A stretch of DNA of 64,000 nt from a virus. This document shows positions 13,270 through 45,582 of this stretch, in pieces. The position numbers and the translations under genes were made by a program. Position 1 is the stretch's first letter; every line of letters starts with the position of its first letter. The DNA is taken from positions 1-64,000 of IMG/VR virus record IMGVR_UViG_651324045_000004. The stretch is one strand, 5' to 3'. The notes below the pieces were generated by a model, which searched no databases, was not told the origin of the DNA, and worked only from the letters and a program-made list of their open reading frames with translations.

Positions 13270-13370
13270 GTGCTTTCCTTTGTTGTAATAAACAAGTTGT
13301 TATCTTATGTGTCTAAATGAGGTTGCAAAAATAAGTGACACGGTCACAGAATTATCTTTCTACTCACCTA

Positions 13371-15426: not shown

Positions 15427-15465
15427 TCTCTAAACAAGTTGTTTTCTTATGGCTGATATTTTACG

Positions 15466-17402: not shown

Positions 17403-18470
17403 TTACGCGTCAGCTGGCTCTAATTCGTCCTTTGACTTCATCTTCGCCTGAATCGACTTAATAGCCTTCACGATTTCGCCCAAATCCTTCTCGCGGTACA
17501 TATCGACGATCTGGGACTTTGTATACTTCTTATCGCCAATCTCGATGCGCCCGGTGGACGTCTTCGGAATGTATCCCTTATCAAGCATGTACTCTACAAG
17601 CGATTCTACGACGTCCAGACCACGCGAAGGGTCGAAGTAGAAGTTCCATTCACATTTCTGGAACGGTGGCGCCACTTTGTTTTTGACGCACTCTGCTTTA
17701 ACCAACTGACCAACACGATCGCCGCCTTCTTTCAACTGACCGCCACCCAGCTTGATGCGGACGGAAGCGTAGAATTTCGGAGAGTCGCCGCCTGGGGAAG
17801 TGGTAGGGTCTCCGAACATTACGCCCATTTTTGTACGAACTTGGTTCAGGAAAATGAGACAGGCATTGTATTTCTGCGCCCACTTAGCCAGCGTTGGTAG
17901 ATTTGCCGAAGTCGCGCGAGCCAGTGCCGTGTTGTCGTTCATATTCAGCTCGTCTTTCTCTTTGGCCGTGCCATCCGCCATCTTCTCGAACTTCTCGAAC
18001 TTCTGGCGCGGAACCATTGAGGCCAGCGAGTCATAGACAATGACGATGGGCGCTTCAGCTGGGATCAGACTCTCCTTGCGAACCAGAGACAAGATTTGCC
18101 CGGTCAAGTCGATGGCGTCCTCAAAGGTGTCTGGCTGCTTATAGACCCAATTACCTTCATCTTCATCAGATTGAAGTCCCATAACTTCAGCCAGACCAAC
18201 GTCAAAACTGTTTTCATGATCGAGGAATACGGCGATACCTCCGACCTTCTGCGCTGCAATCATCGCGCGGGTTGCGAGGAAAGTTTTGCCTGCAGACGGA
18301 GGTCCAAAAATCTCCACAATACGCCCACAAGGAAGACCGCCTTCCAGATCACCAGAAACGGCTTCGTTTAACGGGGGAAAACCGGTGTCCAGCCATTGCT
18401 CGACTTTCTGGATCTCATCATTTCCGCCGATACGTTTTTTCATGGCTACTGCTAATGGTGACTTTTTCAT
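17403..18470 (-). CDS. RecA/UvsX-family recombinase
   Basis: Walker A GPPSAGKT, RecA core, KNKVAPPF motif. Conserved RBS at the start. Confidence 0.85.
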   Translation of the reverse strand: MKKSPLAVAMKKRIGGNDEIQKVEQWLDTGFPPLNEAVSGDLEGGLPCGRIVEIFGPPSAGKTFLATRAMIAAQKVGGIAVFLDHENSFDVGLAEVMGLQSDEDEGNWVYKQPDTFEDAIDLTGQILSLVRKESLIPAEAPIVIVYDSLASMVPRQKFEKFEKMADGTAKEKDELNMNDNTALARATSANLPTLAKWAQKYNACLIFLNQVRTKMGVMFGDPTTSPGGDSPKFYASVRIKLGGGQLKEGGDRVGQLVKAECVKNKVAPPFQKCEWNFYFDPSRGLDVVESLVEYMLDKGYIPKTSTGRIEIGDKKYTKSQIVDMYREKDLGEIVKAIKSIQAKMKSKDELEPADA

Positions 18471-18486
18471 GTGTTTTCCTTTGGTT

Positions 18487-19766: not shown

Positions 19767-20744
19767 TTACATTGAAAGCGCGTTAAGTTGCGCGTAAATG
19801 TCATCCAGATCTTCGTTTTCCGGCTCAGCTGCTGGCTCGCTTGCTGGCGCTTCTTTTACTTCTTTTACCTCTTTCTCTTCTGGTTCGAATACGGTTTCTT
19901 TCGCGTATTCAACTTCTTTATCCAGTAAAGAGGCTTCGGCAGTTGAGTCATCTACGCCAGTAATGGACATGCCTGGAAGAGATGCAGCTGCTTTGCCGGT
20001 TGGGGTTGGCAGAGCGCCGGCGCTTGAACCCATAGACGCTGGCAGTGCGATTCCGGTCGCGCGAGCAATCATTTTGGAGGTCGCCATCAGTTTTGTCGGA
20101 TCGGTCTGGTTTACAAACTGTTCCAGAGACGGCTGGTTGTCCCAGAACTTAGCCGGAACGGCTGTTTTGTTTTTACGCATCGGTTTGACTTTGTAGTCAG
20201 TATCCAGACCAGATCCGGTGCGAGTAATTTGATACGCGTAACCTTTTTCGCGGCTCAGCGGTTCGCCGATCTCATCGTTCATATCCTGCATAATGGCGTC
20301 CATCAGGTCGTCAAACACGGACATAGGCATATCGATGAGAGAAGTCTTGTCGGTGTCGCTGAAGTCTTCTTTCTGAGACCACATGCCGACAACAGCCATG
20401 CGCGGAGAGGCACGCATATCGTCAATGACTTTTTCCATGGCTTTGTTGCCTTTGTACTTCGCTTTAGCTTCCATAACCATTTCGCACATTTCGCACGGCT
20501 TATCATGGGTATGCTGAAAGCACAGATGAGCGCTGTATACGTCCTTCCCATCTTCGCCTTTAGATTTGGCATAGTGAATGCCGTACTTGTGGGAGAATGG
20601 AATATTGTCAGGGTCGTCTTTGTTCAGGATGATGCGAACGTAGTTTTCGCCTGGTTGCATCTTTTGCAGATCGTTCCCGCGATTGCCGCGTGCGTTTTTC
20701 GCAACTTCTTGGCTTTTCTTCAGAAGGTTCATTAAAGCGGACAT
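19767..20744 (-). CDS. gp32-like single-stranded DNA-binding protein (zinc-binding, acidic C-terminal tail)
   Basis: His-Cys3-type cluster HLCFQHTHDKPCEMCE reminiscent of the T4 gp32 zinc site. Acidic C-terminus EPENEDLDDIYAQLNAL. Conserved RBS present. Confidence 0.6.
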   Translation of the reverse strand: MSALMNLLKKSQEVAKNARGNRGNDLQKMQPGENYVRIILNKDDPDNIPFSHKYGIHYAKSKGEDGKDVYSAHLCFQHTHDKPCEMCEMVMEAKAKYKGNKAMEKVIDDMRASPRMAVVGMWSQKEDFSDTDKTSLIDMPMSVFDDLMDAIMQDMNDEIGEPLSREKGYAYQITRTGSGLDTDYKVKPMRKNKTAVPAKFWDNQPSLEQFVNQTDPTKLMATSKMIARATGIALPASMGSSAGALPTPTGKAAASLPGMSITGVDDSTAEASLLDKEVEYAKETVFEPEEKEVKEVKEAPASEPAAEPENEDLDDIYAQLNALSM

Positions 20745-20810
20745 GTGTTTTCCTTTATTGTTAATGGCTTTTATTGCACTTGGTTATGATAGATAAGCGA
20801 TCACTTATTA

Positions 20811-21460: not shown

Positions 21461-21883
21461 TTAGGCTACGTACATTTCTGCCAGCGTTCTTTTTCCGACT
21501 CCCCGCCCGGTAATGGCTATACGCTGAGCACGCTGGAGACGGTAGTCTTTGACGCTGGCCGCTTTACCTACCTCGACAAATTCCTCCGCAACCTTTGATA
21601 TCAGTCGGTCTCGATAAGCCTCAAACTCAGCAAGATGTTTTTTGACATTGCTTGATTTAGCTATCACAGCGACATAATCTCGAACCATCGGGTCGCGCAC
21701 GCGCTTCAGAATTATCTTTGCTGCGCTACGTGCTGCGCTATTCGCTCGGCGCCCATCAAGCTCCGCCTGCCGCATAGCGAGACGAATGGTGACGGGACAG
21801 TCTGCGAACTCCCAGAATGCTGACTTATTTAGAGCGATAATGGCCTTATCGATATACTCCTGTGACACTGTAACCTCGCTCAT
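21461..21883 (-). CDS. hypothetical protein
   Basis: 140-aa ORF. Its start overlaps the stop of the dnaE C-terminal part. Confidence 0.5.
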   Translation of the reverse strand: MSEVTVSQEYIDKAIIALNKSAFWEFADCPVTIRLAMRQAELDGRRANSAARSAAKIILKRVRDPMVRDYVAVIAKSSNVKKHLAEFEAYRDRLISKVAEEFVEVGKAASVKDYRLQRAQRIAITGRGVGKRTLAEMYVA

Positions 21884-23042
21884 GACAATGCTTCCTTAAT
21901 GTCTTCCATAATAAGTTCCAATTTCTCACCTTCTTCCGGTCTGAAGTGAAGTATGCCCGGATTGAATCCGTAAAACACGGTCAAGTCCATTGCGCCAAAG
22001 TATTCCTTGCGTCCGACCAAATCCGTTGCCTTGGTTTTGTCGTTGAAGAGACTGGCCGATAGGCGACCACACGTCAGGACGTAGGTTGGTTTAACCAGCT
22101 CAAGCTCTTTCTTCATAAACTCGATGTAGGTGTTCTCTGCGTCGCGGGACAGTGGCAACTTCTTATCTTGCTTAATGACGCCGGTAACGTACACCTCGCT
22201 CATGCGCAGATCGCCATTAACGAGCATTTTCGCCTTAAAATCTTCGTAGCCGTTCTCCATGAAGATCCCCGTCCTGATATCGTTGCCGTTTGCTGTGTCG
22301 AGGATAATCATTATTTTTGGCGATACGCCGATATGCGGAGTAACCAGATCTTCGCCCACCCCGACCTCTTTACGCAGCTCTTCCATCAACATCGATACTT
22401 CTGCCTGGCGTTTCGGATTCATCTCGAACGGGCGACTCACTTTTACCGCATCGATAATGAGGCTTCCCATCAGCTCTGATTGAGCCTTGCGGCGGGATTC
22501 CGCCATCGCTGGTTCGCTGCCAGGCTCAATACTGGCAAATGCACCAACGGCGTCCAGCGCTTCCTGTACACGGATATTGCACAGTCTGGCTTCGATCGCC
22601 TCTTTGAATTGTGCTCTGGACTCAAACTTACCACCTACACGCTCGCGAGCACGCATAATGGCTAAGCTGCCTTTTTCAGAACAACCTTTGACAGCTGAGA
22701 AGGGGGCATATAGCGCCGCCCGGCCATCCTTCAGTTCGACTATTTCGATGCGGTCAGTTGAGAGATTGATGTCTGGCGGCATCACGATAACGCCGCGTGC
22801 CAGTGCATCCTTTACAACAGCTCGGTGTTTTTCATCATCCTGAATTGTCAGTGCGGCGGCGAAGAATGCAGCCGGATGGTGAGTCTTCAGATACATTGCC
22901 TGGTAGCTGATTGCGGTATAGGCCACGGCGTGTGATTTGTTAAAGCCATACGACCCGAATTTCTCGAAAGCATCCCAGACCTCTTTTGCTTTTGATTCGC
23001 TGAGTCCGGGCTTCTCTGAGATGATTTTAGTAATCTTCATGT
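21880..23042 (-). CDS. dnaE: DNA polymerase III alpha (DnaE-type) C-terminal part, encoded as a separate gene
   Basis: GSYGFNKSHAVAYTAISYQAMYLKTHHPAAFFAA (DnaE fingers/HhH region) and an OB-like tail. Its own conserved RBS CATGTGTTTTCCTTTG is at 23040, so the start is MKITKIISEK, not the ORF-track start at 23100. Confidence 0.8.
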
Positions 23043-23110
23043 GTTTTCCTTTGTCATTAAACAAGTTGTTTTCAGAAACTAAAAAACAACTTGTTTTCAC
23101 ATTTTACTTA

Positions 23111-25483
23111 TTACTTAGAGGTGTCAAATTCAATAATGTCGGCATCTTCTTTCATGGCTTGCTCGACAGTGCGCTTCTTACCATCAGAGCACGGATGAAG
23201 CGCGGCGCGATGAACAGTGACAATCTGGCCGTCGTCAGTCTGGACTTCCAACCAACCAAGCTGCGCACGATCTGAAAAGTCGGCGCCAATCTTTTTCATC
23301 TTCTCGATGTCTTTTTTACCAATCGCCTTCCTTACCATATCTGCTTCCGACAGAGAGAAGCCGGCGAGGATCTGCGACGCTTTCATGATTTGTTCCTGAT
23401 AGACCAAAACCCCGTTGGTTTCTTTGGTCAATTCGTCAAGGCTTGGGTGAAGTGAGTGAGCGTCCTCATAACCACGCGCAACGCTGACGTAGGTGTCCAT
23501 CATGCCGGACTGCATTGGGCCTGGGCGATATAGCGCGGTAGTTGCGACGGCCATTTCAAACGACATTGGTTTGATGCCGCTTCCAAGGTTTTTAAGCAGG
23601 TTTCTCATGCCGCCAGACTCGAACTGGAACACGCCAGTTGTTTCACCCAACGCCATACCCTCAAGGACGCGTTTATCATCGAGAGGGATTGCGTCGAGGT
23701 TAACGTCGATCCCCTCGTTCTCTTTGATGTAGCGTTTAGCGAGAGCCAGTAGATCGAGCGTAGCCAGCCCTAACACGTCCAGCTTGATAAGCCCCATTGA
23801 TTCACAGAAACGCTTGTCAAACGCGATACAGCGCACCCCGTTGCGTAACTCGACTGGTGTTCGCTCAGTCAGTGGTACGCCAGAAACGATGACACCCGCG
23901 GCGTGCTTACCATAGCTGCGCATCAGTGACTGGAGTTTGCACGCGGCGTCGAATGCTTCCGGGTTTGCTTTCGCGTATTTGTCGAGGGCGCCCAGCTGCT
24001 CGCGCGTCTCTTCGAGAGTTAATCCCTCATCATCGAATGGCTTCAGCTGCTTAGATACCGCCATATCTTCCGTTGACACGCCGTAGATACGCGCTGTGTC
24101 TCGGAGTGCCGACGCCATACCCAGATAAGAGAAGTTAGGAATGCCGGCCACGTATTTTTCGCCGTAGTGCTCTTCGAGATATTCAAGTACCCGAGGTCGT
24201 TGCGCCTGACTGAAGTCCAGATCCGCGTCAGGCAAGTCCAGACGTTCAGGGTTGATGAAACGCTCAAACAGGAGACCGTGGCGTAGCGGGTCGATGTTGG
24301 TGATCCCAATCGCCCACGCAACAAGTGAACCGGCGGACGATCCGCGACCCGGCCCGACCGGGATATCCTGTTTACGCGCCCATGACAGTAGATTTTCAAC
24401 CATCAGGAAGTAGCCGCAAAATCCCAGCTTTTTCAGAACACTCAACTCATAACGTAAACGGTTGATGTAAACCTGATACTGCTCTGCTGGTGGCTTCCAA
24501 CCAAATTCAAGCGTTGTTAAACGACGCTTCAATCCTTCTGCCGCCATTCGCGTCAACGTATCACCCTCATCTTCCGCCATAACTGGCAGACTGACCGGCA
24601 TCTCATGCCAGCGCCAGCTGCACGCCGCAATGATTTCGTCCTGAGTCTCGTTAACCATCGCGGAACTAATACCCTCGATACCCATGCGTTTCGAGAATTC
24701 CATCAAGCGAACCAGCAAATGCTTGCGGTTCTGGATAGAGTTGTCGCGCTGGTGTGGGATGTGAAAACGATATGGCTGATCCGTTTTGATGTTATTGATA
24801 ACCATATGCGCAATGTCGCGCAGGTCTGCGTCCTCTTCTTTCTCGTAATAAGCTGGATAGAACGCAACAGGGGCGATTTTAAGCGCATTAGCCACCTTCA
24901 TCGCCTTCATGTTCAACTGATCGTAGAGAGGCGTAGCAATCGGATACACAACGCTGTAGAAGTTGTCACGCCCACCAACCTCCAGCAATTTAGTCAGGAT
25001 TTTAACGAAGTCCTGCCGATGAAATATGCTATCGCGATCAGACGTCAGTAGAAGGATGTTGCCCTTTGAATACGTTTCGGCCAGCTGCTCCAACGAGATG
25101 CGCGGGAAAAAGTGAAACTGCTCGCGGCGGTTGCCCAACGTCATCAGCTCACAGAGATCTTTGTATCCTTCATCGTTCTTTATCAGCGCGGTGAAGCTGT
25201 ACAGGCGCCCAAGTTTGCATACCGGGATCTCTGAACCTTCCTCTTTGGCTTTTCTGACCGCTGCTTCATAAAAAGGATTGTCACTAATGACCAGACGGAC
25301 GCCGCAAATAACAGCCAGGTCATCGCCAGCCGACTGCTGCAGCGGGATGATTGAAGCCAGACTCATTGTGTCTGCGCTGATAATGGCTGAATAACCTAAC
25401 TCTTTCGCAGCCTTCGCTACGCGGCTTGCTTTCAGCGCCGATTCACCAAGAGAAAAATCGGTGCGTACCATTAATGCCTTCAT
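23111..25483 (-). CDS. dnaE: DNA polymerase III alpha (DnaE-type) N-terminal part: PHP domain plus palm/thumb/fingers
   Basis: PHP N-terminus (MKALMVRTDFSLGESAL), polymerase core (GFCGYFLMVENLLSWARKQDIPVGPGRGSSAGSLVAWAIGIT). It ends with TAA 65 bp before the C-terminal part. Confidence 0.85.
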   Translation of the reverse strand: MKALMVRTDFSLGESALKASRVAKAAKELGYSAIISADTMSLASIIPLQQSAGDDLAVICGVRLVISDNPFYEAAVRKAKEEGSEIPVCKLGRLYSFTALIKNDEGYKDLCELMTLGNRREQFHFFPRISLEQLAETYSKGNILLLTSDRDSIFHRQDFVKILTKLLEVGGRDNFYSVVYPIATPLYDQLNMKAMKVANALKIAPVAFYPAYYEKEEDADLRDIAHMVINNIKTDQPYRFHIPHQRDNSIQNRKHLLVRLMEFSKRMGIEGISSAMVNETQDEIIAACSWRWHEMPVSLPVMAEDEGDTLTRMAAEGLKRRLTTLEFGWKPPAEQYQVYINRLRYELSVLKKLGFCGYFLMVENLLSWARKQDIPVGPGRGSSAGSLVAWAIGITNIDPLRHGLLFERFINPERLDLPDADLDFSQAQRPRVLEYLEEHYGEKYVAGIPNFSYLGMASALRDTARIYGVSTEDMAVSKQLKPFDDEGLTLEETREQLGALDKYAKANPEAFDAACKLQSLMRSYGKHAAGVIVSGVPLTERTPVELRNGVRCIAFDKRFCESMGLIKLDVLGLATLDLLALAKRYIKENEGIDVNLDAIPLDDKRVLEGMALGETTGVFQFESGGMRNLLKNLGSGIKPMSFEMAVATTALYRPGPMQSGMMDTYVSVARGYEDAHSLHPSLDELTKETNGVLVYQEQIMKASQILAGFSLSEADMVRKAIGKKDIEKMKKIGADFSDRAQLGWLEVQTDDGQIVTVHRAALHPCSDGKKRTVEQAMKEDADIIEFDTSK

Positions 25484-25674: not shown

Positions 25675-26911
25675 AGACGCGCTGCGCTATCTCGGTTGCG
25701 GATACCGCACTGGTGGACGGTAATTTATTGATGAAAGACTTCGTAACGCCTTTCTTGAAGTTTTTGTGCGCCATCCCGATCATTGCTGCATTGCGCAGTT
25801 CACGCGGCCCGATGGGTTGGCTAATATTTCCTGCCTCATACCCGCTACGGATTCGGGTTGCGAAATCGATAAGCATGGTTGCGTACACTTTCGGCAAACC
25901 CATTTTCTCAAGCATCGCGGACTCATGAGACCTATCCATGTACTTGACGTGTGAGACGATACCGAAACGAGAGAAGTTCGCTGCGTTCTGGATATTCGTA
26001 CCCTGGTACAATCCAGTTTCATCACCGGAGCCATTGGTGTTGCCGGTTCCGATGAAAGCGAATCGTTTATGTGGCTCGACGTAGCGCCACTCCGGGGTTG
26101 CTTCTTTGATGATCAGTGGTTCACCTTCCAGCACTGGCTGGTAAACGCCAAGGATTTGCGGGAATGCGAAATCATATTCATCGGCCAGATAAACCCACCC
26201 GTTACGCATTGCACTTGCCAGAAGACCTGGCTCGAAATAAGTTGCACCACCACGCACAAGAATCTGGCCGCAGATGTGCGACTCTTCAGTGGACGCGGTG
26301 TGCTGCGCACGGATGATCGGTCGGTTTAGTCGAGCGCAAAGCTGAGTTGGTAGCGTACTCTTGCCGGTTCCTGCGTGACCCCACAGATATCCAGGGATAC
26401 GCATCTCGATCATCATAAGCACGTCTTTAAGCAGCTCGATGTCGCCGAACACATAGTCAGGGTTTACTTTTGGCACAAACTCCGGGAATGGCTTATTGAT
26501 GTTTACGGTGATGCGCAGCGGCTCGCCAGATGCCGTCTTCAGTAAGTCAGCATCGAGACCGAGTATTTCATGTACTGCGACCTTTTCGACCATATAGTCT
26601 TCGAAGCCGGCGTACCCAACGTGAACTGCAGCCGGTTCTTCTTTCTTTTTGGCCTGATGTTCTTTTAGACGTTTGGCGGCAGCGGCGGACATAGTCGGCG
26701 CTTCAGGAAATGCAGCAACATAGATTTTCATCAATTCATTAGGCGTCTTGTCTTCGTGTTCTTTCGGGATGCCAGAGCATTTTTTGCCAATAAAATGAGA
26801 ACCGACATGATGGGTCTCGCCGCCACACCATTTGCACGAAATAGGCGTTTCTTCGATCTCGCGAGATTTTTCTTGTTCAGCGACTGTTTTGTTCTGCATT
26901 TCGACCGACAT
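25661..26911 (-). CDS. CobS-like AAA+ (MoxR-family) ATPase
   Basis: Walker A GHAGTGKST, Walker B VYLADEYDF, and an N-terminal CxxC/HH zinc-like segment. Paired with the downstream vWA protein. Confidence 0.75.
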   Translation of the reverse strand: MSVEMQNKTVAEQEKSREIEETPISCKWCGGETHHVGSHFIGKKCSGIPKEHEDKTPNELMKIYVAAFPEAPTMSAAAAKRLKEHQAKKKEEPAAVHVGYAGFEDYMVEKVAVHEILGLDADLLKTASGEPLRITVNINKPFPEFVPKVNPDYVFGDIELLKDVLMMIEMRIPGYLWGHAGTGKSTLPTQLCARLNRPIIRAQHTASTEESHICGQILVRGGATYFEPGLLASAMRNGWVYLADEYDFAFPQILGVYQPVLEGEPLIIKEATPEWRYVEPHKRFAFIGTGNTNGSGDETGLYQGTNIQNAANFSRFGIVSHVKYMDRSHESAMLEKMGLPKVYATMLIDFATRIRSGYEAGNISQPIGPRELRNAAMIGMAHKNFKKGVTKSFINKLPSTSAVSATEIAQRVFGDE

Positions 26912-27009
26912 GTGTTTTCCTTTTGAAGTAGTTCTGATGTGTCAATGATACTTATATATAACAGGCAAGGAAATAAGTATTTACTTATCATCCTTGCCCA
27001 AAAAAACGG

Positions 27010-43264: not shown

Positions 43265-43308
43265 GTGCTTTCCTTATTGTTTTAAACAACTTGTTTTCTT
43301 AATTATGT

Positions 43309-45419: not shown

Positions 45420-45582
45420 GATTATGCCTTGTAGTTTGTTTATTTTGAAAACAAGATGTTTTCTTATGTTTCTTATAGCCTAAAACAAACAAGGTATAGT
45501 GACAACAAAAACCATTCAACTAACTGGACGTATACTGGTCTATGTTAAAAACGCCCCTAAGCGATTTTGGGGCGTTTTCTCT

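Follow-up and report, generated by a model that had tools for sequence, protein, structure and literature searches.

A two-piece DnaE-type polymerase in a Klebsiella phage-plasmid, with broken ends that resemble a decayed split intein

The split DnaE of cyanobacteria (Ssp, Npu) is broken immediately before the CFNKSH motif, with its two genes at distant loci and an active intein. In the Aeromonas phages 25 and 44RR, gene 43, which specifies a B-family replicative polymerase, is divided into 43A and 43B. What separates them is either a seg-like endonuclease gene or a short intercistronic stretch that is not translated, and the resulting proteins, which co-purify, are active (reviewed in PMC2988022). 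The nrdA gene of Aeh1 is split by mobE; the two NrdA parts come together through tails that the mobile element supplied, and these tails are essential for activity (Crona et al. 2011, PMC3045599). In "fractured genes", which include three metagenomic DnaE loci, split intein halves lie on either side of a free-standing endonuclease gene; each of these DnaE loci has a different insertion site, none of them that of cyanobacteria (Dassa et al. 2009, PMC2677866). These inteins are complete, with an IntN of 88-105 aa, a separate and shorter C-terminal fragment, the six motifs and every catalytic residue, and splicing is expected of them; the fractured gene was proposed as an intermediate of gene fission (PMC2677866).

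The DNA analysed here, referred to as the window, is a 64,000-nucleotide stretch of an SSU5-like phage-plasmid of Klebsiella. Its DnaE-type polymerase is encoded by two minus-strand ORFs, the N-terminal piece ORF1 (25483..23111, 790 aa plus stop; ORF list, Pfam and dN/dS) and the C-terminal piece ORF2 (23040..21880, 386 aa plus stop; ORF list, Pfam, SSU5 alignment and dN/dS). A preliminary description, made from the sequence alone, had proposed a polymerase in two adjacent genes with different frames and separate starts, and the ORF list, the sequence and the recurrence of the junction in 29 Klebsiella plasmids uphold this. ORF1 ended as described, at 790 aa and a TAA, its final residues ...EFDTSK being followed by the tandem in-frame stops TAA TAA (23108..23113, minus strand). 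ORF2, given as 387 aa, runs for 386 from the ATG at 23040 to 21880, and the intercistronic spacer, given as 65 or 68 bp, is 70 nt long (23041..23110, minus strand; the position of the HNH gene in relatives).

ORF1 contained a PHP domain (PF02811, 5.6e-11, residues 6-152), the palm (Pol III alpha NTPase domain; PF07733, 4.8e-73, full-length profile covered), the thumb and most of the fingers (PF17657, 7.4e-50, residues 575-740), in agreement with the earlier assignment. PDADLDF, with the palm aspartates, and KLDVLGL are both visible in the translation, and from knowledge of E. coli alpha we take them to represent the palm catalytic triad. The fingers domain is shared out between the ORFs, the palm lying in ORF1 and the nearly invariant FNKSH fingers motif in ORF2. 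Along with these remaining fingers ORF2 held a helix-hairpin-helix domain (HHH_6, PF14579, 2.6e-12, residues 83-172), as had been expected, and a C-terminal domain of the uracil-DNA-glycosylase (UDG) superfamily fold (21883..22314, minus strand; Pfam, Foldseek). The "OB region" formerly assigned to ORF2 was a misidentification of this domain. Pfam found no match to the OB fold of cellular DnaE (PF01336) in either ORF; its UDG match on ORF2 was weak (0.0029), PF03167 is precomputed on many ORF2 homologues, and Foldseek matched the domain to the family-4 UDGs 4zbx, 1l9g and 1ui0 (TM(target) ~0.75, E 1e-7 to 1e-8). It occupies the place of the OB and tau-binding region in cellular DnaE, and the polymerase belongs to a phage-type DnaE-UDG subfamily and is not an orthologue of cellular DnaE. 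Phage SSU5 encodes the enzyme as one 1172-aa chain along which ORF1 and then ORF2 align in order, ORF2 with residues 787-1171. An AlphaFold model of the two pieces as one concatenated chain had a mean pLDDT of 90.1 and matched Pol III alpha 2hpi (E 1e-59, TM 0.63-0.66), and also 2hnh and 3e0d.

The start of ORF2 carries its own initiation signals. An SD-like AAAGGA (23047-23052) lies 6 nt ahead of the ATG within the box CAAAGGAAAACACATG, of which the window has 12 copies (0.05 expected), all ending in ATG; among the matches listed, 9 of 9 were at ORF starts, and the claim that ORF2 has its own copy of a conserved ribosome-binding site stands. The ribosome-binding box with the ORF2 ATG, CAAAGGAAAACAC, spans 23038..23053 (minus strand) and is conserved in K. 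oxytoca, where a GTG located upstream, at 23100 in the window, gives no usable start. The spacer also contains an inverted repeat, GAAAACAAGTTGTTTT / AAAACAACTTGTTT (23059..23096, minus strand; arms at 23082-23096 and 23059-23073), predicted to fold into a 15-bp RNA hairpin (-20.8 kcal/mol, z = -3.0) with no match to an Rfam family. Each arm is a copy of the palindrome AAACAA-N-TTGTTT, for which the window has 15 matches against 2.1 expected. The two copies previously noted in the spacer thus exist, but they are inverted relative to each other, and the motif recurs upstream of other genes, so that it is a recurring intergenic motif of the replicon and not peculiar to the break. In K. oxytoca, which has the same 70-nt spacer length, the first arm is conserved and pairing of the second is preserved via G-U; two palindrome copies are also present in the spacer of the relative L012. 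The hairpin may have a role of its own.

In 25 independent plasmid assemblies from Klebsiella the junction showed no or almost no differences, and four K. oxytoca plasmids showed matching architecture at ~80% identity. Because of this recurrence, a sequencing error at the junction was ruled out. Between the window and K. oxytoca pCAV1752-111, dN/dS was 0.036 for ORF1 and 0.030 for ORF2 at a dS of ~1.6, with values of 0.07 for the ORF1 tail and 0.03 for the ORF2 head region, and the stops, spacer length, ribosome-binding site and ATG were all preserved. With both pieces under strong purifying selection and the architecture kept across this distance, the split is genuine, as the preliminary description had suspected. 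Clustering at 90% identity placed 383 member sequences with ORF1 and 247 with ORF2.

While SSU5 is fused, many relatives were split at the identical residue, with the gap usually filled by an HNH homing endonuclease gene. Cluster representatives comprised ~43 fused and ~29 stand-alone forms; all stand-alone ORF2 representatives in the alignment had the identical start point, and the break position was identical in dozens of diverged lineages. Split and fused forms were interleaved on a tree (neighbour-joining, and crude). The interval from RKAMGKK through FNKSH measured 52-53 aa in 33 of 33 diverse canonical fused representatives and 104-110 aa both in the concatenated window pieces and in certain fused relatives that keep an insertion, in frame, of only ~55 aa. 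What the 33 canonical forms lack is a 47-aa tail on ORF1 (residues ~744-790, WLEVQTDDGQ...ADIIEFDTSK; 23114..23254, minus strand) and a ~10-aa head on ORF2 (MKITKIISEKP; 23008..23040, minus strand). The insertion-keeping fused forms may be re-fusions or ancestors.

The HNH genes, of 0.7 kb, occupied the gap in Enterobacter asburiae (L004) and in L006, L008, L009, L011 and L015/16; they fall into two unrelated families, of which family 1 was present in 25 plasmids. The polymerases of E. asburiae and SSU5 were 93-100% identical but only 54-81% identical across ~470 nt flanking the HNH gene, a stretch that in the alignment looks like a co-conversion tract. The gap of the window holds no homing endonuclease gene, only the 70-nt spacer, and short spacers without an endonuclease also occurred in L012, L013, L014 and L017. 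We infer that the endonuclease gene was lost in the window's lineage rather than never gained, although the short-spacer form may be older than the endonuclease form. The earlier suggestion of a past intein or homing-element site is supported by the HNH genes in exactly this gap and by the likeness of the cut ends to split-intein halves; a genuine split and such a site are compatible, not exclusive.

The predicted structures and profile comparisons suggest that tail and head are the relic of a split intein. In the predicted model of this one small domain, on which the evidence for an intein fold is based, the top 13 Foldseek matches were all inteins, led by Npu DnaE (probability 1.0, TM(query) 0.57). 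An HMM of the region matched 13 DnaE split-intein chains at marginal E values (0.0035-0.26), with a spurious repeat protein as the best-scoring match; profile positions 15-54 aligned with intein residues ~61-101. The Pfam Hint and intein models detected nothing in the region. The head, proposed as the first strand of the intein C-fragment, is a beta-strand (793-800 in concatenated numbering, pLDDT ~85) in the AlphaFold prediction and is predicted to complete the small domain built by the ORF1 tail; its pattern M(K)I..I persisted in ~60 homologues of ORF2 that stand alone, the most distant of them at 31% identity. The region covers only about half of a Hint domain (~57 aa). The first relic residue is W, N, H or Y instead of Cys or Ser, a C-terminal His-Asn is absent, the +1 residue is Gly (PGLSE), and a conserved His falls, in an ungapped HMMER alignment, at the Thr position of block B and not at its His position. 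With 47 and ~10 aa against the published IntN of 88-105 aa, the fragment sizes are outside the fractured-gene range. No intact intein was found among relatives at exactly the break site of the window; P0144 has a full intein ~20 residues upstream of it, and true split inteins exist elsewhere in the DnaE-UDG polymerase family. The proposal of a split DnaE lacking an intein does not hold in its original form, in that an apparent intein relic is present and its splicing residues are missing.

The best reading of these data, to which we give a probability of about 0.7, is a fractured gene in which what was a split intein has degenerated and, unable to splice, now serves as an association module. 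ORF1 and ORF2 would be translated separately, as indicated by the tandem stops on ORF1 and the strong Shine-Dalgarno sequence and ATG of ORF2. They are probably read from one transcript, and the two products would assemble non-covalently into one enzyme. The break would have been made by a mobile cassette aimed at one loop of the fingers domain, which in relatives consists of the 47-aa tail, a free-standing HNH homing endonuclease gene and the ~10-aa head; the window carries the same tail and head, with the spacer in place of the endonuclease gene. The tail would correspond to roughly residues 50-102, the C-terminal half, of a DnaE-type intein N-fragment and the head to the first C-fragment strand, which would make ORF1 end at the break point of natural split inteins. 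Since the blocks with the splicing nucleophiles are missing, the pieces are presumably not ligated. The decayed halves instead probably keep the two proteins associated but unjoined: complementation of strands from tail and head, like that between split-intein halves, would dock the pieces and rebuild the fingers domain, and it is for this docking, we propose, that the relic has been kept. A further proposition, which we judge evenly balanced, makes the tail-gap-head unit a distinct kind of selfish element: having given up splicing, the former intein would still spread by endonuclease-driven homing and would survive because its remaining central strands re-dock the enzyme halves non-covalently. 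Present in roughly 40% of the lineages of the large phage and phage-plasmid DnaE-UDG family, it would represent the end-state of the fractured-gene pathway, permanent fission of a replicative polymerase.

The chief competitor, unlikely in our estimate, accepts a gene split by an endonuclease cassette and regards tail and head as new sequence born of the insertion, as in Aeh1 NrdA, with the intein likeness a convergence of a generic small beta-domain. This is opposed by three independent methods that rank inteins first, and specifically DnaE-type split inteins, by an alignment that stops at the natural split site, and by an endonuclease gene placed where inteins carry theirs. The converse proposal, that the relic is a working if very atypical split intein that trans-splices the two pieces, draws on the split-intein fold and profile similarity and on the true split inteins elsewhere in the polymerase family. 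It is very improbable given half a Hint fold, a first residue of Trp, Asn, His or Tyr, and no C-terminal His-Asn before the +1 Gly; moreover, the insertion that fused relatives retain in frame is too short for a self-excising intein.

Three other accounts dispense with a docked two-piece enzyme. The UDG fold of the C-terminal domain and the GenBank records that name ORF2 "uracil-DNA glycosylase" would suit an independent accessory protein beside a shortened but self-sufficient polymerase in ORF1. This is improbable, as ORF2 opens with ~200 residues that make up the remaining fingers (FNKSH) and HhH domain of Pol III alpha, and these follow the ORF1 part without a break in SSU5 and some 43 fused cluster representatives. 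We consider it barely credible that a single polypeptide arises by translational bypass of a 76-nt gap, as in T4 gene 60, with take-off at AAG 23116-23114 and landing at AAG 23037-23035. Matching AAG codons on either side, a stop after the take-off codon and a hairpin in the gap do recall such a system, and in the junction region the product would exceed the SSU5 protein by just 4 aa. However, the codon match is not conserved (AAA/AAG in K. oxytoca; GCC, TCC or CAT against AAG/AAA in L012-L014), the gap is filled in relatives by endonuclease genes of 0.7 kb, the stops are tandem, and ORF2 always retains its own Met and SD. Equally remote is a broken polymerase, whether through misassembly or as a pseudogene that a frameshift or insertion left behind, in a plasmid that uses the host enzyme. 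In its favour, RefSeq-derived rows lacked a CDS under the junction in 22 Klebsiella plasmids, possibly because the genes were called as pseudogenes, which the table leaves out. Against it stand the near-identical junction in 25 assemblies, the dN/dS of 0.03-0.04 for both halves at a dS of ~1.6 with spacer, stops, RBS and ATG unchanged, and a break common to dozens of diverged lineages; the pseudogene reading is refuted as far as sequence evidence allows.

A decayed split intein at this locus would document how an intein can lead to permanent gene fission, a step for which Dassa et al. offered a proposal but no example, and no description of such a decayed-intein two-piece polymerase was found in the searchable literature. 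The example would be a replicative polymerase common among phage-plasmids of clinical Klebsiella, E. coli and Enterobacter, of which databases contain hundreds to thousands of copies. Four natural kinds of allele exist side by side (fused without insertion, fused with insertion, split with an endonuclease gene, split without one), and for this reason the question of assembly can be tested in a tractable system. If the reading is correct, the relic is a natural and very small (47 + 10 aa) heterodimerisation pair, and protein engineers could use it as a compact docking module if it binds tightly. For annotation, the product labelled "uracil-DNA glycosylase" or "hypothetical protein" in some records is really the C-terminal third of a replicative polymerase. 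In RefSeq-derived gene tables the ORF1/ORF2 pair was missing altogether.

Among the known systems, gene 43 is likewise a phage replicative polymerase in two adjacent genes with an endonuclease gene or a short spacer in the gap among related genomes; the window shows the endonuclease-free, short-spacer state, as does phage 44RR. It differs in that the enzyme is of family C and not B, no intein-like relic has been reported at the gene 43 break, and the present case is found in Enterobacterales phage-plasmids and spread across a very large family. As in T4 gene 60 and the 50-nt bypass cassette with mobA, a short untranslated insert linked to a homing endonuclease cassette interrupts the gene of a replication enzyme, whereas at the break in the window take-off and landing codons are not conserved as a pair and ORF2 carries initiation signals itself. 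Aeh1 nrdA shares the splitting of an essential replication-related gene by a free-standing HNH endonuclease and the break tails missing from contiguous homologues; the Aeh1 tails have no recognised origin, whereas those of the window appear, from sequence profiles and predicted models, to be intein-derived. Cyanobacterial DnaE is also broken in the fingers region, and the best sequence and Foldseek matches of the relic were Ssp/Npu-type DnaE inteins, but the window has its break about 27 residues ahead of FNKSH, its two genes side by side and a relic devoid of splicing residues. The fractured genes, which in phages are replication genes with DnaE among them, have the same order of N-piece with intein-N, endonuclease gene, and intein-C with C-piece; from that arrangement the window departs in the ~47 + ~10 aa that are left, in the missing nucleophiles and in the absence of the endonuclease gene itself.

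The N-terminal piece of the DnaE-type polymerase (ORF1, 790 aa; 25483..23111, minus strand) ended in ...ADIIEFDTSK followed by TAA TAA, and the C-terminal piece (ORF2, 386 aa, minus strand) extended from an ATG at 23040 to 21880. The preliminary description of two ORFs in different frames, the second with its own start, was borne out by the ORF coordinates and by the Shine-Dalgarno sequence and ATG, although its ORF2 length of 387 aa and its spacer of 65 or 68 nt were slightly off; the actual separation is 70 nt. The sequence AAAGGA lies 6 nt before the ORF2 ATG within the box CAAAGGAAAACACATG, a uniform translation-initiation box present in 12 copies in the window at ≤2 mismatches compared with 0.05 expected (minus strand; for example 18468-18483, 20742-20757, 23038-23053 and 26909-26924). 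Every copy ends in ATG, and the nine sites displayed are ORF starts. K. oxytoca has no open start corresponding to the upstream GTG (23100), which supports initiation of ORF2 at ATG 23040.

Pfam assigned PHP, Pol III alpha NTPase and fingers domains to ORF1, and HHH_6 with a weak uracil-DNA glycosylase (UDG) match to ORF2. Both fused and split arrangements were found among homologous phage-plasmids. In phage SSU5 the polymerase is a single 1172-aa protein collinear with ORF1 and ORF2. When SSU5 was aligned with full-length Taq Pol III alpha, SSU5 residues 315-739 corresponded to Taq 363-788 and SSU5 793-954 to Taq 790-947. Approximately 53 residues therefore constitute an insertion in the fingers loop, and the break in the window falls inside this insertion. 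An AlphaFold model of the concatenated ORF1 and ORF2, generated from an alignment of 104 family members without templates, had a mean pLDDT of 90.1 and matched Pol III alpha structures at E 1e-59 (TM 0.63-0.66). The last ~145 residues of the model matched family-4 uracil-DNA glycosylases (TM(target) ~0.75), and not the OB region proposed from the sequence alone. This predicted UDG-fold domain (21883-22314, minus strand) would replace the OB and tau-binding region of cellular DnaE and explains the GenBank name "uracil-DNA glycosylase" for ORF2. Two ORFs, P0321 (1075 aa) and P0359 (950 aa), join the polymerase N-terminal part to RecA-like sequence and probably represent chimeras formed by deletion in certain E. 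coli phage-plasmids.

The split region matched 234 Enterobacterales plasmids and phage SSU5, and the source of the window is therefore an SSU5-like phage-plasmid of Klebsiella. The same junction was found in 29 Klebsiella plasmids, 25 at ≥96% identity and four from K. oxytoca at ~80%, and K. oxytoca pCAV1752-111 retained the 790-aa and 386-aa ORFs and the 70-nt spacer. Compared with pCAV1752-111, ORF1 had a dN/dS of 0.036 and ORF2 one of 0.030 at dS ~1.6; the values were 0.07 over the final 60 codons of ORF1 and 0.03 over the opening 40 of ORF2. A sequencing error and a pseudogene were both rejected on the basis of the concordant plasmids and the dN/dS of 0.03-0.04. ORF2 as an independent glycosylase, the reading its GenBank name would suggest, was rejected because polymerase fingers and the HhH domain make up its first ~200 residues. 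In 22 Klebsiella plasmids, RefSeq-derived rows, from a table that omits pseudogenes, held no protein-coding feature under the junction, and GenBank submitter annotations placed two CDS there; the RefSeq pipeline probably treats the two genes as a pseudogene.

The spacer contains an inverted repeat (arms 23082-23096 and 23059-23073, minus strand) that would fold as RNA into a 15-bp hairpin with a predicted energy of -20.8 kcal/mol (z = -3.0). Both arms are copies of the palindrome AAACAA-N-TTGTTT (wider consensus about CATAAGAAAACAAsTTGTTTA), which matched 15 times in the window compared with 2.1 expected. Copies at 13290-13302, 15432-15444, 43284-43296 and 45449-45461 lie 10-40 nt upstream of the start codons of minus-strand genes. 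The palindrome also precedes the endonuclease gene of Enterobacter asburiae described below, and two copies occupy the spacer of another split relative (L012). It probably acts as an operator or promoter in the phage-plasmid. An Rfam search of the spacer returned no known RNA element, and a terminator and promoter scan found no site within the spacer, terminator-like sites included, and no regional excess. One copy of the palindrome directly follows a terminator-like hairpin.

E. asburiae pMB2617_2 (L004) shares the polymerase break point of the window to the residue, and its gap is occupied by a gene for a 244-aa HNH endonuclease whose stop overlaps the ORF2 start; this HNH type was present in 25 plasmids. 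More distant relatives (ORF2 identity 31-51%) had the same break with differing gap contents. HNH genes of 238 aa (L006 and L011), 235 aa (L009), 190 aa (L008, Acinetobacter brisouii) and 233 aa (L015/L016) were found, and the gap of L010 (3613-4986) held three ORFs of 172, 95 and 184 aa with no Pfam match and no HNH gene. The HNH proteins of the gap belong to two unrelated families. Like the window, L012, L013, L014 and L017 are split without an endonuclease, these splits having spacers of 56-84 nt. The E. asburiae and SSU5 polymerase genes were 93-100% identical in nucleotide sequence except for ~470 nt flanking the HNH gene (SSU5 gene nt ~1981-2447), where identity fell sharply to 54-81%. 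This mosaic looks like the outcome of a homing event in which the flanks were co-converted. A resemblance between the ~25 nt before ORF2 in the window (TTTAATGACAAAGGAAAACACATG) and the stretch of L015 that separates its HNH gene from ORF2 (GCTAATGACGGGAAAAACACATG) lends modest support to loss of an endonuclease gene in the window lineage.

The break is bordered by a tail at the end of ORF1 (residues ~744-790) and a head of ~10-11 residues at the start of ORF2 (MKITKIISEKP). To assess their distribution, 101 matches at E < 1e-30 from an ORF2 search of 1.84 billion cluster representatives were examined; ~43 were fused proteins (1077-1172 aa) and ~29 were stand-alone proteins (372-420 aa) aligned from residue 1. 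The interval from RKAMGKK through FNKSH had the canonical 52-53 residues in 33 of 33 diverse fused representatives that have neither tail nor head, compared with 104-108 in the SSU5 group and 110 in the concatenated window pieces. All stand-alone ORF2 proteins in the alignment start 28-37 residues before FNKSH, typically with M-K-I-x-x-I, and the ORF1 tails are homologous in all split forms (G-W-x-x-V-x-x-x-D-G...H...C-x-D-G...R-T-x-E-x-A...D-I-x-x-F). As a homologue query, the 114-aa C-terminal region of ORF1 returned only eight short fragments. Fused proteins that keep the insertion had at least three junction types, namely E. coli 1168-aa (P0270), SSU5 1172-aa (P0354-P0356) and Xenorhabdus 1176-1178-aa (P0366, P0368 and P0369), which suggests that in-frame fusion followed loss of the endonuclease gene on several separate occasions. 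In a neighbour-joining tree built on the C-terminal region, split forms are intermixed with canonical fused ones, indicating that the cassette has been gained or lost many times.

The conserved pattern of the tail recalls intein block B and the strands that follow it, a likeness treated as a lead only. Pfam found no Hint domain in the junction peptides or in 24 of 24 members of alignment A4, and three other tests, Foldseek and a sequence profile among them, supported the likeness to inteins. The top 13 Foldseek matches were inteins, the first being Npu DnaE (E 0.019, probability 1.0, TM(query) 0.57). An HMM built from the 24-sequence alignment A4 and searched against PDB sequences ranked one spurious repeat protein first and then eight DnaE split-intein chains; DnaE split-intein chains made up 13 of the 19 matches listed, at marginal E-values (7qil 0.0035, Npu 0.03-0.05, Ssp 0.14-0.26). 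In all of these, profile positions 15-54 (or 9-55) aligned to intein residues ~61-101. The Npu N-fragment is 102 aa long, and the natural split point of DnaE inteins is also where inteins carry endonuclease domains. Since ORF1 residues 748-787 aligned with residues 61-100 of the Npu N-fragment, the end of ORF1 (residue 790) corresponds to this split point. In both predicted models the ORF2 head formed a strand (793-800) beside tail strands 744-749, 754-758 and 763-765 and helix 773-778, with low confidence only at the junction loop (781-790, pLDDT 64). From these predicted structures and marginal sequence statistics we infer an intein origin of the tail and head.

Active trans-splicing would restore a continuous polymerase from the two pieces. 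The tail and head lack the first ~50 residues of an intein, among them the nucleophile, and everything after the first C-fragment strand, including His-Asn and the +1 nucleophile. The first residue of the putative relic is Trp, Asn, His or Tyr, and P-G-L-S-E follows it. With the required residues missing, splicing is very unlikely, and the trans-splicing reading was rejected. A bypass like that of T4 gene 60 was considered in view of the AAG at both ends of the gap in the window, and was rejected since this codon pair is not kept in relatives and ORF2 retains its own start everywhere.

No intact intein was found at exactly the break site of the window. A full-size intein with an endonuclease domain (LRK|C...HN|CMGKK) occupies residues ~713-1133 of homologue P0144, ~20 residues upstream of that site, and the N-termini of P0194 and P0125 are intein C-fragments before the GMRKLL motif, at another site. 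In A. brisouii (BKFY01000005.1, 691-6254 and 9517-11046) the polymerase is in three pieces. At the palm-region break the N-terminal piece ends ...ISCTKDHKFYSKTRGWIRADEI..., the next piece starts ...KGKVYDLTVANTHSY and a 308-aa ORF lies between; this break has the look of a genuine split intein. The other break, in the fingers, is the gap that holds the HNH gene, and a nearby recA carries an intein.

These data are best explained by a proposed model in which the locus is what Dassa et al. (PMC2677866) call a fractured gene, here one whose split intein has decayed. Homing of an endonuclease cassette into an uninterrupted allele would split the polymerase gene, and the enzyme would survive through docking of the two polypeptides by the leftover intein strands; the window would represent the short-spacer state. 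Three parts of this model are inferred, namely that both pieces assemble, that they are not spliced and in what order the events took place. Split replicative polymerases, genes in pieces made by endonucleases and fractured genes with split inteins are already known. The literature, covered incompletely in full text, yielded no account of a C-family polymerase split at this site, of the wide spread of this split in enterobacterial phage-plasmids or of a break that has retained the relic of a decayed intein unable to splice. The proposed docking of tail and head is analogous to the split NrdA of phage Aeh1, which is assembled by tails derived from a mobile element (PMC3045599). Likewise, the split in the window parallels the gp43A/B polymerases of Aeromonas phages 25 and 44RR, whose two parts are separated by an endonuclease gene or by no more than a short untranslated spacer (PMC2988022), the window corresponding to the latter arrangement.
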